Assembly: GCA_964524845.1 (NCBI GenBank)
Contig: CAZGFX010000001.1
Coordinates: 163,281-227,280 of the forward strand
DNA length: 64,000 bases
Source of the DNA: an uncultured Gammaproteobacteria bacterium
GTDB lineage: Bacteria > Patescibacteriota > Patescibacteriia > CAZGFX01
Direction: 5' to 3'
The first letter of the stretch is position 1. The number at the start of each line of letters is the position of its first letter. Below are positions 40,825-43,763 of this stretch, in pieces. A program made the translations under genes and the position numbers. The notes beneath the pieces are model-generated. The model had not been told where the DNA came from. It made no database searches and worked only from the letters and a program-made list of their open reading frames with translations.

Positions 40825-40855
40825 ACAAAAAAACAAGGTTATGCCTTGTTTGTTT
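40825..40855. repeat. 31-bp element acaaaaaaacaaggttatgccttgtttgttt (palindromic hairpin AAACAAGG-ttatg-CCTTGTTT), copy 1 of 2 flanking the MVP gene
   Basis: Identical copy at 43653-43683. This copy lies between the divergent cupin and MVP genes, so it cannot be acting as a terminator here. Confidence 0.8.
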
Positions 40856-40873
40856 TAGAAAGCGTCTCATTAT

Positions 40874-40908
40874 TTGACAAAAAAATGAATAAATACTATT
40901 CTTACACG
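40874..40908 (+). promoter_or_regulatory. Putative sigma70-like promoter for the MVP gene (TTGACA-N17-TATTCT)
   Basis: Consensus -35 hexamer and a reasonable -10, ~75 nt upstream of a strong AAAAAGGAG RBS. Confidence 0.35.
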
Positions 40909-40983
40909 ATAAATTCAAAAAAATAGCATTCTATTTTAATTTCCTAAATAATTACATTTTGCAACTTAAAAAGGAGTTTTATT

Positions 40984-43584
40984 ATGCCGGATCCCCAGGA
41001 TAACAAAGAACTAGTACTCGGGCCAACCGAGTATGCATATGTTCTAGACGAAACAAAAGGACACATAAATGTGTATGTTGGACCACACAAGGTCAGTCTT
41101 TCAAATACAGATAGACCCGTGTGTTATGATGAAAAAACAGGACGATTTACCAAAACCGATTTAACAAGCGCAATTAAGGCTTTTACATCGGCAAACGAGG
41201 GCTCTTACTTAGTGTTACAAAATCCTACTGCGGAGAATAACAAAGACACACCAAAAACAGGATCGGGACTAATTCCACCACTTCTTCTCGGACGCAAGAT
41301 AAACATTCCAGGTCCGAAATCATTTGCCTTATGGCCACAACAAACCGTGAGAGTGATTGACGGACATCGACTTCGAACAAACGAATATCTTCTTGTTCGT
41401 GTATGCAACGACAAGGAAGCAGAAAAGAATTGGGAAAAAGCGATTATCAATCCACAAACGAGTACTCTTCCTTTAAAAACAAGTGAAACCGAAACCACAA
41501 AAGAAAACGAACCAGAAAAAGACAACGAAACACCTGAAAATACAAAAAAAGACAAAAACACGTTCGTGATGGGACAATTGATAATCATAAAAGGAACAGA
41601 TGTTTCCTTTTATATTCCGCCTACTGGAATTGAGGTTGTTCCGGAAGAAGGAACCGCAACGAATTTTGTTCGAAAAGCAATCACGCTCGAACGACTCGAA
41701 TATTGTATCCTTCTCGACGAAGACGGAAACAAACGGTATGTTCAAGGACCGGCAGTTGTTTTTCCAAGGCCCACCGAAACATTTATCAAAAATGAAAACG
41801 GTTCCTGCAAACTCAAAGCAATTGAACTTACAGAAATCATGGGAATTTATGTAAAAGTTATTGCCGATTACACTGACGATGACGGAAAAGAACACAAAAC
41901 CGGAGAAGAGTTGTTCATCACCGGCAAAACACAAAAGATATATTTTCCACGCCCTGAACACGCTATAATAAAATACGGAAAAGAGTTTGTGCATTTTGCA
42001 GTGGCAATTCCCAAAGGCGAAGGACGATACGTGCTAGAAAAAAACACTGGCAAAGTGAAACTGGTAACAGGTCCGATTATGTTTCTCCCCGATCCCCGTA
42101 CAGAAGTAATCGTCCAAAGAATTCTAGACAAAACGACAGTTGAGCTTTGGTTCCCTGGAAATTCAGAAGCAATTTTATATAATCAAAAATTGCAAACACA
42201 ACCGGGTCGAAACGCATCGGAATCAGAAACCAAATCCAAATCATCATTTGGTCTAAGGCATGAAACAGATGATGACGATGAAACTTCGTTCATTTCGGAT
42301 GATTTTTCACGAAGAACATCTTTCACCCCGCCGCCATCAATCACTTTGAACACAAAGTATGAAGGTGCAGTGCTTATTAATGTATGGCCGGGATATGCGA
42401 TCCAAATCGTCAACAAAATCGGCGAACGAAAAATTGTTCGAGGACCAAAAAGTGTTCTGCTCGAATACGACGAAACACTCGAGGGATTGGTATTGTCGAC
42501 CGGCACCCCAAAAACAGACAAGAACACGATTAAAACTGTATATTTACTCGCGGAAAACAACAAAGTGTCCGATGTAATCGAAGCGGAAACCAAGGATTTC
42601 GTTAAGGTAAATATTAAGCTTTCATACCGAGTCAATTTTGAAAACGACTCCAGTAAATGGTTCAGTGTTGGAAATTACATAAAACTTCTCACGGACCATC
42701 TTCGTTCCATGATTCGCAATGTTGTAAAACAGAAAGGAATCGAGGAGTTTAACAATAATGCAATCTCCATAATAAGGGACAGTATTCTTGGAAAATCGCT
42801 CACCTCTATTGAGGAAGGTTCCGAACGAGAAACGACAAAACGCACCGGAAGGATTTTCGAAGAAAATAACATGAGGGTATATGATGTGGAGGTTCTTGAT
42901 ATTATTATTGGTGATGATGAAATACAAGAACTTCTTGCTTCGACTCAACAAAAAATTATCGAGGAGGCGGTAAAAATCACCTCTGAAAAAACAATTCTCA
43001 AATCGACTTTGGAGCTAGAGCTAATTAAACGAGAAAAAGAAGAAGCCTTGATTGAAACAGAAAAACAAAAAATGGTTCTTCAGCAAAAAAAGAAAGAGCT
43101 CTCGGAAAGCATAGCGCTTGATAATCTAAAGATGGAAATGGCAAGTGTCACCGCAGCACTAGCTGTCGAATTGGAAAAAATTAAAAAAGAAATTACAGCA
43201 AAAACCGAGAAACAGAAAGCCGAATCCGCCGAGCAAGAACATTTAAACAAAATAAACAATGAGACTCTTGCTCGAGAAAAGGCCAAAGAAACTCAAAAAA
43301 ACGAGTTCAAACACATCGAACAAGAAAGACGATTAGAAGAACTACGAGTCGAAACAATGGCCATTGTCGAACGTGCCAAAGCATTTGGACCTGAAGTTGT
43401 TGCCGCTCTGCAACAATTTTCTGACAAGCTTATGTTGGCAAAAGTTGCAGAAAGCATGTCTCCTATCCCAATGTTTGGCGACGACAGTCTAAAGGATGTT
43501 GTCGACAGATTGTTCAAAGGAACAATTTTGAGCGAACTAGTTGGCAAAGAAAAAATGAAACCGCCCGAAAATAAAACAGAATAA
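40984..43584 (+). CDS. Major vault protein (MVP) homolog: N-terminal MVP-repeat array, SPFH-like shoulder, long charged cap-helix
   Basis: 866 aa (human MVP is 893). N-terminus YAYVLDETKGHINVYVGPHKVSLSNTDRPV aligns with human [29 protein letters not shown]. Repeat core TDDDGKEHKTGEELFITGKTQKIYFP aligns with [23 protein letters not shown]. The C-terminal ~200 aa are E/K/L-rich coiled coil (KSTLELELIKREKEEALIETEKQK...), like the MVP cap-helix. Confidence 0.8.
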   Translation: MPDPQDNKELVLGPTEYAYVLDETKGHINVYVGPHKVSLSNTDRPVCYDEKTGRFTKTDLTSAIKAFTSANEGSYLVLQNPTAENNKDTPKTGSGLIPPLLLGRKINIPGPKSFALWPQQTVRVIDGHRLRTNEYLLVRVCNDKEAEKNWEKAIINPQTSTLPLKTSETETTKENEPEKDNETPENTKKDKNTFVMGQLIIIKGTDVSFYIPPTGIEVVPEEGTATNFVRKAITLERLEYCILLDEDGNKRYVQGPAVVFPRPTETFIKNENGSCKLKAIELTEIMGIYVKVIADYTDDDGKEHKTGEELFITGKTQKIYFPRPEHAIIKYGKEFVHFAVAIPKGEGRYVLEKNTGKVKLVTGPIMFLPDPRTEVIVQRILDKTTVELWFPGNSEAILYNQKLQTQPGRNASESETKSKSSFGLRHETDDDDETSFISDDFSRRTSFTPPPSITLNTKYEGAVLINVWPGYAIQIVNKIGERKIVRGPKSVLLEYDETLEGLVLSTGTPKTDKNTIKTVYLLAENNKVSDVIEAETKDFVKVNIKLSYRVNFENDSSKWFSVGNYIKLLTDHLRSMIRNVVKQKGIEEFNNNAISIIRDSILGKSLTSIEEGSERETTKRTGRIFEENNMRVYDVEVLDIIIGDDEIQELLASTQQKIIEEAVKITSEKTILKSTLELELIKREKEEALIETEKQKMVLQQKKKELSESIALDNLKMEMASVTAALAVELEKIKKEITAKTEKQKAESAEQEHLNKINNETLAREKAKETQKNEFKHIEQERRLEELRVETMAIVERAKAFGPEVVAALQQFSDKLMLAKVAESMSPIPMFGDDSLKDVVDRLFKGTILSELVGKEKMKPPENKTE

Positions 43585-43611
43585 TATTAATCATTTTGTT
43601 TTAAAAACAAA

Positions 43612-43645
43612 ACAGCCATATCAATTGATAGGGCTGTTTTTTTAT
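43612..43645 (+). terminator. Terminator-like extended palindrome (CAGCCATATCAATTGATAGGGCTG followed by T-run)
   Basis: 24-nt near-perfect palindrome immediately after the MVP stop, followed by TTTTTTTATTT. Confidence 0.5.
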
Positions 43646-43652
43646 TTAAACA

Positions 43653-43683
43653 CACAAAAAAACAAGGTTATGCCTTGTTTGTT
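43653..43683. repeat. 31-bp element acaaaaaaacaaggttatgccttgtttgttt, copy 2 of 2 (3' flank of the MVP gene, abutting tRNA-Arg)
   Basis: Identical to 40825-40855. Confidence 0.8.
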
Positions 43684-43685
43684 TG

Positions 43686-43763
43686 ATGGCGCACTCGGCA
43701 GGAGTCGAACCTGCGACCTTCAGGACCGCAACCTGATGCTCTATCCAACTGAGCTACGAGTGC
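43686..43763 (-). tRNA. tRNA-Arg (anticodon GCG)
   Basis: Reverse complement GCACTCGTAGCTCAGTTGGATAGAGCATCAGGTTGCGGTCCTGAAGGTCGCAGGTTCGACTCCTGCCGAGTGCGCCA; anticodon stem TCAGG/CCTGA, loop TTGCGGT. Confidence 0.8.

Follow-up and report, generated by a model that had tools for sequence, protein, structure and literature searches.

Genomic islets and cis-mobilizable elements (CIMEs) are short inserts beside tRNA genes that have direct repeats at their ends, carry no recombinase of their own and can in principle be excised; CIMEs are described as inserts between att sites whose genes for integration and transfer have been lost (PMC6323972). Here we report a locus of this type, a small islet next to a tRNA gene with repeats at its ends, in a 64-kb stretch of contig CAZGFX010000001.1 from a Patescibacteria-type genome (hereafter the window). 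At this locus, a gene for a homologue of major vault protein (MVP) lies next to a tRNA-Arg gene, between two exact copies of a 31-bp hairpin. The target is slightly unusual, the repeat being the terminator behind the tRNA and not the tRNA 3' end. The segment also differs from CIMEs in that no cognate integrase or integrative and conjugative element is known for it, in that it consists of a single gene, and in that its mobility is putative. We read the locus as an insertion footprint, in which one crossover at the tRNA-Arg terminator would have brought in an MVP unit and thereby duplicated the target, and we give this reading a probability of about one in two.

Duplication of tens of bp around the whole of an insert is the expected product of a Campbell-type single crossover, as established by recombination genetics. 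The MVP locus has the layout of Campbell-type integration, where a whole circle enters and the crossover sequence is found once on each side in direct orientation; unlike in the typical case, the homology here is only 31 bp and the circular form is hypothetical.

MVP homologues are already known from bacteria and phage, where their patchy distribution has been put down to horizontal transfer, and the published cases come from Myxococcales, Cytophagales, cyanobacteria and gut phages (bioRxiv 10.1101/872010; 10.1101/2023.11.10.566534; PMC3762200). The protein encoded in the window resembles these homologues in being full length, in having the MVP shoulder and repeat domains and in its patchy distribution, whereas its host is a Patescibacteria-type genome. 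We know of no demonstrated function for bacterial vaults, and the function of MVP is unknown even in eukaryotes.

A predicted tRNA terminator is duplicated on the two flanks of the MVP gene

The sequence ACAAAAAAACAAGGTTATGCCTTGTTTGTTT is found as an exact match over all 31 positions upstream and downstream of the MVP gene (Table 1). A first-pass annotation of the same DNA had noted this duplication, placing the second copy one base low, at 43653-43683. The two copies are in direct orientation, and their identity breaks off exactly at both edges, beyond which the flanking DNA is not alignable. Copy 1 ends 128 nt before the MVP start codon, and copy 2 begins 69 nt after the stop codon. These are the only two occurrences in the window, even when 3 mismatches are allowed; there were 0 in 100 shuffles. 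In an all-versus-all comparison of the intergenic DNA of the window, the pair had the lowest blastn E-value (2e-12) of the dispersed repeats.

Each copy is built from an A tract, a stem of 8-9 bp, a loop of 3-5 nt and a T tract, with a hairpin energy of about -9 to -10 kcal/mol in the context of copy 1 and about -14 kcal/mol in that of copy 2, where flanking bases also pair. The fold agrees with the palindromic hairpin described at first pass. A terminator scan flagged both copies on the minus strand. On that strand the element reads AAACAAGG-CATAA-CCTTGTTT followed by TTTTGT, the stem-loop and U tract of an intrinsic terminator; the plus-strand tail, GTTTT or GTTTG, is weaker than that of the minus strand. 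Copy 2 had been said to abut the tRNA-Arg gene directly, and it does so: on the strand of the tRNA, 2 nt separate the CCA end of tRNA-Arg(GCG) from the first base of copy 2. Hence, copy 2 would be the terminator of this tRNA gene. On the plus strand it doubles as a second hairpin behind the MVP terminator. We take the 31-mer to be the bidirectional intrinsic terminator that serves tRNA-Arg(GCG). It shares with bacterial intrinsic bidirectional terminators a GC-containing stem-loop between A and T tracts, and copy 2 stands directly behind a tRNA gene while facing a convergent gene end. Unlike such terminators, copy 1 lies behind no gene, and an identical sequence that includes the loop is not expected from function alone. 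Rfam contains no family for the hairpin.

The window holds about 19 intergenic loci with terminator-like hairpins (A tract, stem, T tract), nearly all of them behind gene ends. Copy 1 is placed differently, between two divergent gene starts, as the earlier annotation had noted, and no gene ends there; the only other hairpin in a divergent spacer is a weak candidate at 27079. A common terminator style runs through the genome, with ACAAAAAAAC followed by stem, loop and stem and then by GTTTTTTT. The other terminator-like hairpins in the window reach at best about 71% identity to the 31-mer (at 40310-40340 and 27644-27674), and one terminator sequence is not normally reused in this genome, the uvrA terminator described below excepted.

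If the 31-mer belonged to a dispersed family, similar to repetitive extragenic palindromic (REP) elements or made up of generic terminators with many copies elsewhere, its flanking of MVP would be coincidental. Such a family would account for the shared terminator style and for the two copies with 71% similarity; moreover, two unrelated low-GC genomes have, by chance, a terminator that contains the 21-nt core of the repeat, and our view takes in 64 kb out of at least 368 kb of contig. However, REP elements and bacterial interspersed mosaic elements occur as many near-identical intergenic copies, whereas in the window we found two copies at up to 3 mismatches, both beside one gene, with no other hairpin nearer than about 71% identity. 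The 21-nt core gave 1 match in GTDB representative genomes, 1 in JGI metagenomes and 0 in IMG/VR. Both matches are ordinary terminators, one after an L21-like gene (L003) and the other between convergent genes (L012), and no further copies of the 31-mer turned up in these three collections, which do not include the source genome. We give the dispersed family a slim chance.

The segment between the repeats is a predicted MVP transcription unit

The product of the intact gene is assigned to the MVP family by its MVP_shoulder and Vault_3 domains and by full-length similarity to labelled MVPs. A total of 6,456 homologues were retrieved; the top ones cover 97-100% of the query at 47-53% identity, and several are labelled major vault protein. 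A promoter-like site starts 18 nt inside the putative insert, and the gene has a strong terminator of its own that ends immediately before copy 2; the fold of the region 43585-43700 (z = -5.15) has two tandem hairpins. Since the gene has both a promoter-like site and its own terminator, the DNA between the repeats would be one complete MVP transcription unit and nothing besides, the promoter being a prediction from consensus. MVP is also the sole plus-strand gene between 39310 and 50924, within a 12-kb run of minus-strand genes.

We compared the composition of MVP with that of the 49 genes of the window. Its GC content (0.399) ranks 11th of 49, and its GC content at third codon positions (GC3, 0.349) ranks 6th, about 1.2 standard deviations above the mean. 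The synonymous-codon distance (0.150) is the highest among genes longer than 600 aa and the second highest among the 13 genes longer than 400 aa. Thus, the composition of MVP deviates mildly, with no clear foreign signature. The first-pass annotation had described the gene as behaving like an inserted cassette and proposed this comparison as a check. What stands of that description is a self-contained unit, reversed with respect to all of its neighbours and bracketed by repeats; its composition deviates mildly, its GC content and codon usage fall inside the native range, and the window encodes no recombinase.

Proposed insertion at the tRNA-Arg terminator

We propose that the ancestral order on the minus strand would have been tRNA-Arg, terminator, cupin promoter and cupin gene, all contiguous; on this view, the cupin gene would originally have come next downstream of tRNA-Arg with its terminator. 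A foreign, self-contained 2.8-kb MVP transcription unit would then have entered at the terminator through a single reciprocal crossover of the Campbell type between a circular DNA and the chromosome, promoted either by short homology or by the product of a recombinase gene located elsewhere, and the crossover sequence would have been left duplicated, with one copy on each side. The tRNA-proximal copy would keep terminating the tRNA and back up the MVP terminator. The distal copy would be an orphan hairpin abutting the cupin promoter, where it would at most block antisense read-through. Recombination between the copies would restore the empty site and yield a 2,829-bp circle. The proposal starts from what is observed, namely the repeat itself, the form of a hairpin and terminator that it takes, where it stands with respect to the tRNA gene, the completeness of the unit and the existence of analogous cases.

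One such case lies in the window itself. Its intergenic DNA contains only one other strong dispersed repeat, of 49 nt and 86% identity (blastn E = 6e-11), whose copies are the uvrA terminator and a degenerate duplicate of it (Table 1). Between them lies a low-GC island in which one open reading frame (ORF) matches phrog_23674 (5e-19), one encodes a TrmB-like regulator, and three share the N-terminus MVGKK(L/I)(N/K)KKK; the island also has internal repeats of 93 nt and 537 nt. This 4.46-kb island is plainly foreign-looking DNA with a duplicated terminator on either side. It shares its architecture with the MVP locus, although the pair is older and its hairpin sequence is unrelated. A defence role for MVP or for the genes of the island was considered and rejected, as PADLOC gave no meaningful matches.

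A further case is found at the locus with the nearest MVP homologue (L004, GCA_040961635.1). There, a 79-nt direct repeat with 82% identity (6444-6522 and 10651-10729), apparent only in a wider search span, brackets an acidic ORF of 343 aa and the MVP gene (8001-10559); the copies are truncated 5' fragments of one ORF. The uvrA-terminator island and this 79-nt repeat are two independent analogues that support insertion with target duplication. A 92-nt tandem duplication at L004 covers the MVP ribosome-binding site and start codon (7834-8017). At two other MVP loci, L005 and L014 (GCA_964360815.1), no repeats flank MVP. L014 has a tRNA-Asn gene (3155-3228) 200 nt upstream of its MVP homologue, and about 1.3 kb downstream of MVP a 49-nt direct repeat with 94% identity surrounds an NYN-domain gene (7236-8852). 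In all, the MVP-bearing loci, about 95 kb, contain four repeat-bracketed segments (the two of the window and those at L004 and L014), which hints at a recurring process and not a one-off. The other fetched loci, about 100 kb, contain no dispersed repeat pair except a weak 72-nt pair with 76% identity at a megaphage locus (L016).

It could also be argued that the terminator was copied locally, or is held identical by gene conversion, for its function: both sites would need a bidirectional terminator or insulator, there would be no mobile cassette, and MVP might be long resident. One copy would stop the tRNA-Arg and MVP transcripts, and the other would shield the cupin promoter from antisense transcription and the MVP promoter from transcription upstream. 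Both copies do score as terminators, with a hairpin symmetric enough for both strands. Because terminators with short stems are leaky, transcripts from the tandem tRNA-Arg promoters could plausibly read through; in addition, the composition of MVP is near native, and this genome has many local duplications around its tRNA genes. However, we know of no mechanism that copies just 31 bp over 2.8 kb. The 31-mer is not matched by any of about 17 other terminator-like hairpins in the window (about 71% at best); therefore, selection for termination does not require sequence identity. The loop is identical too, suggesting a single recent event, and the uvrA-terminator pair brackets clearly foreign DNA. 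We consider duplication for function unlikely.

As to how the proposed insertion might have happened, the two repeat pairs in the window have no sequence in common, which makes a single sequence-specific recombinase acting on both unlikely. Because of this, and because no integrase or transposase is encoded in the 64 kb, we favour short-homology or structure-favoured recombination at terminator hairpins.

Several points weigh against the insertion reading. The lack of common sequence between the uvrA-terminator pair and the 31-mer pair is one of them. Measured against tRNA-targeting islands, the segment has direct repeats at both ends (exact, 31 bp), but unlike in classical islands the repeat takes in no part of the tRNA gene, starting beyond the CCA end with flanks that cannot be aligned. 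No cognate tyrosine or serine recombinase was found among the 49 window ORFs of at least 110 aa, nor did the window contain any integrase, transposase or other recombinase detectable with Pfam, NCBIfam, PADLOC and PHROG, all of these ORFs having been scanned with one or more of the libraries. The tRNA-Arg gene had been called a classic integration hotspot at first pass; with the repeat outside this gene, the site is not the classical integrase target in a tRNA 3' end. The GC content of MVP lies within the native gene range and its codon usage within the overall range of the window genes; the reading does not account for terminator homology on a foreign circle; no close relative or empty site was found in the searchable collections; and the count of the 31-mer covers 64 kb of the at least 368-kb contig.

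MVP loci and relatives in other genomes

Outside the source sequence itself, the proteins of the locus find matches of at best 78% identity (cupin), 53% (MVP) and 29% (the adjacent Wzy-like protein); the last has no homologue above 36% identity, its top-scoring non-self match being the one at 29%. Cupin loci at 76% identity (L007-L011) have no neighbours in common with the window. The three nearest MVP homologues lie in three different, unrelated neighbourhoods, which fits MVP moving as a single gene, although rearrangement at this distance is also possible.

MVP homologues also occur in megaphages (bioRxiv 10.1101/2023.11.10.566534). In two uncultured megaphages of 462-735 kb (L015 and L016; LR756500.1 and LR756501.1), we found MVP homologues with 49% identity in protein and about 65% in DNA over parts, each within a co-linear gene cluster. 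The presence of MVP in megaphages, together with its varied neighbourhoods, fits gene-level mobility. A phage or plasmid origin of the window MVP was rejected: there was no plasmid match, and the megaphage genes lie in co-linear clusters without flanking repeats or tRNA genes.

Assembly of the repeat

An independent Logan assembly is identical to the window at 40825-43683, 38018-40854 and 43951-49190, the last of these in contig L013, and the flanks of the repeat are the same in two sequencing runs. Logan contigs built at k=31 break exactly at the 31-mer. One of them (L001, SRR12133403_992099) corresponds to 40825-43683, with a length of 2,859 bp and identical first and last 30 nt. This MVP-only contig, with ends that overlap by 30 nt, would be flagged as circular by plasmid and virus callers that rely on circularity. 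Given that 31 bp is a common assembly k-mer size, a k=31 contig of 2.86 kb such as this is open to being miscalled as a plasmid or virus.

These observations bear on whether the locus could be an artefact of assembly or of a mixed population, in which the true chromosome would read cupin, hairpin, tRNA-Arg, and MVP would reside on a 2,829-bp circle or in another strain, joined through the 31-mer. In a k=31 graph, the linear order looks no different from an empty site together with a 2,829-bp circle; the breaks at the repeat and the apparently circular L001 are compatible with such a mixture. On the other hand, the window lies within a contig of about 368 kb, whose assembly through the repeat needs k-mers or reads longer than 31 nt; the flanks agree between two runs; and a 2.8-kb circle with MVP only would have no replication gene. 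An artefact is, in our view, very unlikely.

Comparison with hairpin-bounded mobile elements

Identical direct hairpins at both ends are also the layout of IS200/IS605 ends and of attC-bounded cassettes, and the sequence of the 31-mer can be read as two 11-bp arms with a 7-bp spacer between them, an arrangement like that of tyrosine recombinase core sites. MVP might accordingly be the cargo of a non-autonomous, hairpin-bounded element moved in trans by a Y1 (IS200/IS605-type), Xer-type or integron-type recombinase. The segment resembles integron cassettes, and clusters of attC sites lacking integrases (CALIN arrays), in having a single ORF between imperfect-palindrome sites in direct orientation with no recombinase nearby. 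It differs from them in that the 31-mer has no R or L boxes and no GTTRRRY core, in that MVP appears to have its own promoter and terminator, and in that there is no intI or attI. attC sites are roughly 57-141 nt long; a site of 31 nt is far below this size, and, judged without an attC covariance model and with no integrase in the window, we do not classify it as attC. Furthermore, no Y1 transposase, TnpB, IntI or Xer gene was found in the window, the repeat has the form of an ordinary terminator between A and T tracts and stands where it would serve the tRNA, the paired sites of pdif modules are inverted, and the second repeat pair is of unrelated sequence. Hence, we regard a hairpin-bounded element as highly improbable.

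Partial tRNA copies are a habit of tRNA loci in this genome

Repeats containing fragments of the adjoining tRNA gene had been called repeat scars at first pass. The copies are real: 43864-43876 repeats nt 1-13 of the tRNA and 44039-44047 repeats nt 1-9, in both cases preceded by a duplicate of the promoter-proximal region, and a 47-nt stretch is identical between 43821-43867 and 43933-43979. On the minus strand, 43818-44052 contains two structured GC-rich units, a longer one of about 115 nt that forms three hairpins (z = -3.6) and a shorter one of about 55 nt (z = -3.1), each opening with the tRNA-Arg 5' end behind a promoter-like copy of its own; Rfam has no family for them. However, the copies all lie 5' of the tRNA gene, on the side facing away from MVP, and repeats of this kind are also seen at the tRNA-Leu and tRNA-Ser loci, 16-31 kb from tRNA-Arg.

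Upstream of tRNA-Leu (12365-12452), in the region 11944-12364, copies of nt 1-21 and nt 19-30 enclose three GC-rich tandem units of 110 nt. The units have about 58-60% GC in a 36% GC genome, are 84-92% identical to one another, and are followed by nt 19-30, the promoter region and the intact tRNA gene. The region looks like a truncated copy of tRNA-Leu with a repeat array in its D-loop. At tRNA-Ser (27362-27452; region 27140-27576), there are two upstream tandem units of 110 nt that are 98% identical, each opening with nt 1-12 and holding a hairpin and a TATAAT-bearing promoter region. Downstream of tRNA-Ser, a 24-nt repeat made of its last 19 nt and the next 5 nt recurs after a strongly structured insert of 95 nt (z = -5.8), and this region gives a sub-threshold match to Rfam RtT (E = 0.22).

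Since partial-tRNA repeats are found at tRNA-Leu and tRNA-Ser as well, they are not evidence for insertion of MVP; they are a genome-wide habit of tRNA loci here, and possibly represent tandem promoter duplications. A single mobile element behind all of the GC-rich inserts was rejected, because the three loci share no sequence. The sub-threshold RtT match apart, none of these inserts resembles an Rfam family. The closest known analogue is presumably RtT, the E. coli tyrT-linked repeat. Like the repeats described here, the E. coli tyrT repeats and RtT RNA (Rfam RF00391) adjoin a tRNA gene and each include a tRNA fragment. Unlike RtT, the fragments here are mostly tRNA 5' ends with the promoter region, the period is about 110 nt, and the GC-rich hairpins are specific to each locus; the Rfam score is far under the gathering threshold.

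Neighbouring genes and genome setting

The window is chromosomal DNA of low GC content (36%) that includes parA/parB, topA, dprA, clpB, uvrA, uvrC and an RNase J gene. The anticodon of the tRNA-Arg is GCG and not ACG, the one used by most bacteria and edited to ICG. Cupin homologues with 70-78% identity are widespread in Patescibacteria, the best named ones being from Patescibacteria/Parcubacteria. A perfect TATAAT hexamer lies upstream of the cupin gene and may be its -10 element, although there is no good -35 element; on this reading of the sequence, the cupin promoter probably abuts the hairpin of copy 1.

Table 1. Features of the MVP locus and of the second repeat pair, in window coordinates.
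Feature	Position	Strand	Description
Cupin_2 gene	40364-40759	-	Pfam Cupin_2, 1.1e-13
TATAAT hexamer, perfect	40820-40825	-	Shares one base, the last, with copy 1; lies 60 nt before the cupin ATG
31-bp hairpin repeat, copy 1	40825-40855		Terminator-like hairpin, orphan; divergent spacer, with the cupin start (40759) on one side and the MVP promoter on the other
Segment between the repeats, putative insert	40856-43653	+	2,798 bp; 2,829 bp counting one repeat copy
Sigma-70-like promoter for MVP	40874-40902	+	TTGACA, 17 nt, TATTCT; 10/12 consensus positions; consensus match only
Shine-Dalgarno AAGGAG for MVP	40971-40976	+	Read from sequence
Major vault protein homologue	40984-43584	+	866 aa, intact; Pfam MVP_shoulder 2.3e-27, Vault_3 4.5e-9
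MVP intrinsic terminator	43597-43652	+	Inverted repeat AAACAGCC...GGGCTGTTT, then TTTT; ends one base before copy 2
31-bp hairpin repeat, copy 2	43654-43684	-	tRNA-Arg intrinsic terminator: stem-loop, then UUUUUUUGU
tRNA-Arg, anticodon GCG	43687-43763	-	ARAGORN; Rfam tRNA 69.6 bits; CCA end encoded
Repeats upstream of tRNA-Arg	43776-44061	-	Two units, each a promoter-proximal copy with the first 9-13 nt of the tRNA, then GC-rich hairpins
Second repeat pair, left copy	47682-47730	-	Degenerate duplicate of the uvrA terminator; behind the last island gene, precedes an HD-domain gene
Low-GC island	47731-52190		4.46 kb, five ORFs, four at GC 0.27-0.31 against a window mean of 0.37
Second repeat pair, right copy	52191-52239	-	Terminator directly after uvrA (52263-55250, minus strand); hairpin scan

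Repeats of other kinds were observed elsewhere in the window. A thioredoxin-reductase-like gene contains a perfect 17-nt inverted repeat (39696-39712 and 39918-39934) with arms 205 nt apart, which holds an alternating GC run, TCGCGCGCGCGCGGTCA, that is unusual at 36% GC. In the divergent spacer between uvrA and uvrC, a GC-rich tandem pair of 26 nt (two copies of TCGAGCGCGAAGCGCGAGAGACCTCA) is found at 55289-55340, and a 33-nt repeat pair at 55443-55660, with copies 185 nt apart, the second running about 20 nt into the called uvrC start.

Implications for gene gain in Patescibacteria

Patescibacteria have tiny genomes with few recognisable mobile elements and no cultured genetics, and their gene gain is poorly understood. 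An intact MVP gene in a Patescibacteria-type genome is a probable recent acquisition. The footprint of a single-gene insertion, with an older one 4 kb away, leads to a hypothesis that can be tested with reads, namely gene gain by single crossover at terminator hairpins. More broadly, although we rate the chances of so general a process as low, Patescibacteria-type genomes may acquire, and perhaps exchange, single transcription units, MVP included, as small circles that would integrate at shared short sequences, preferentially the hairpin terminators of tRNA and housekeeping genes, with no dedicated integrase, and that could pop out again.

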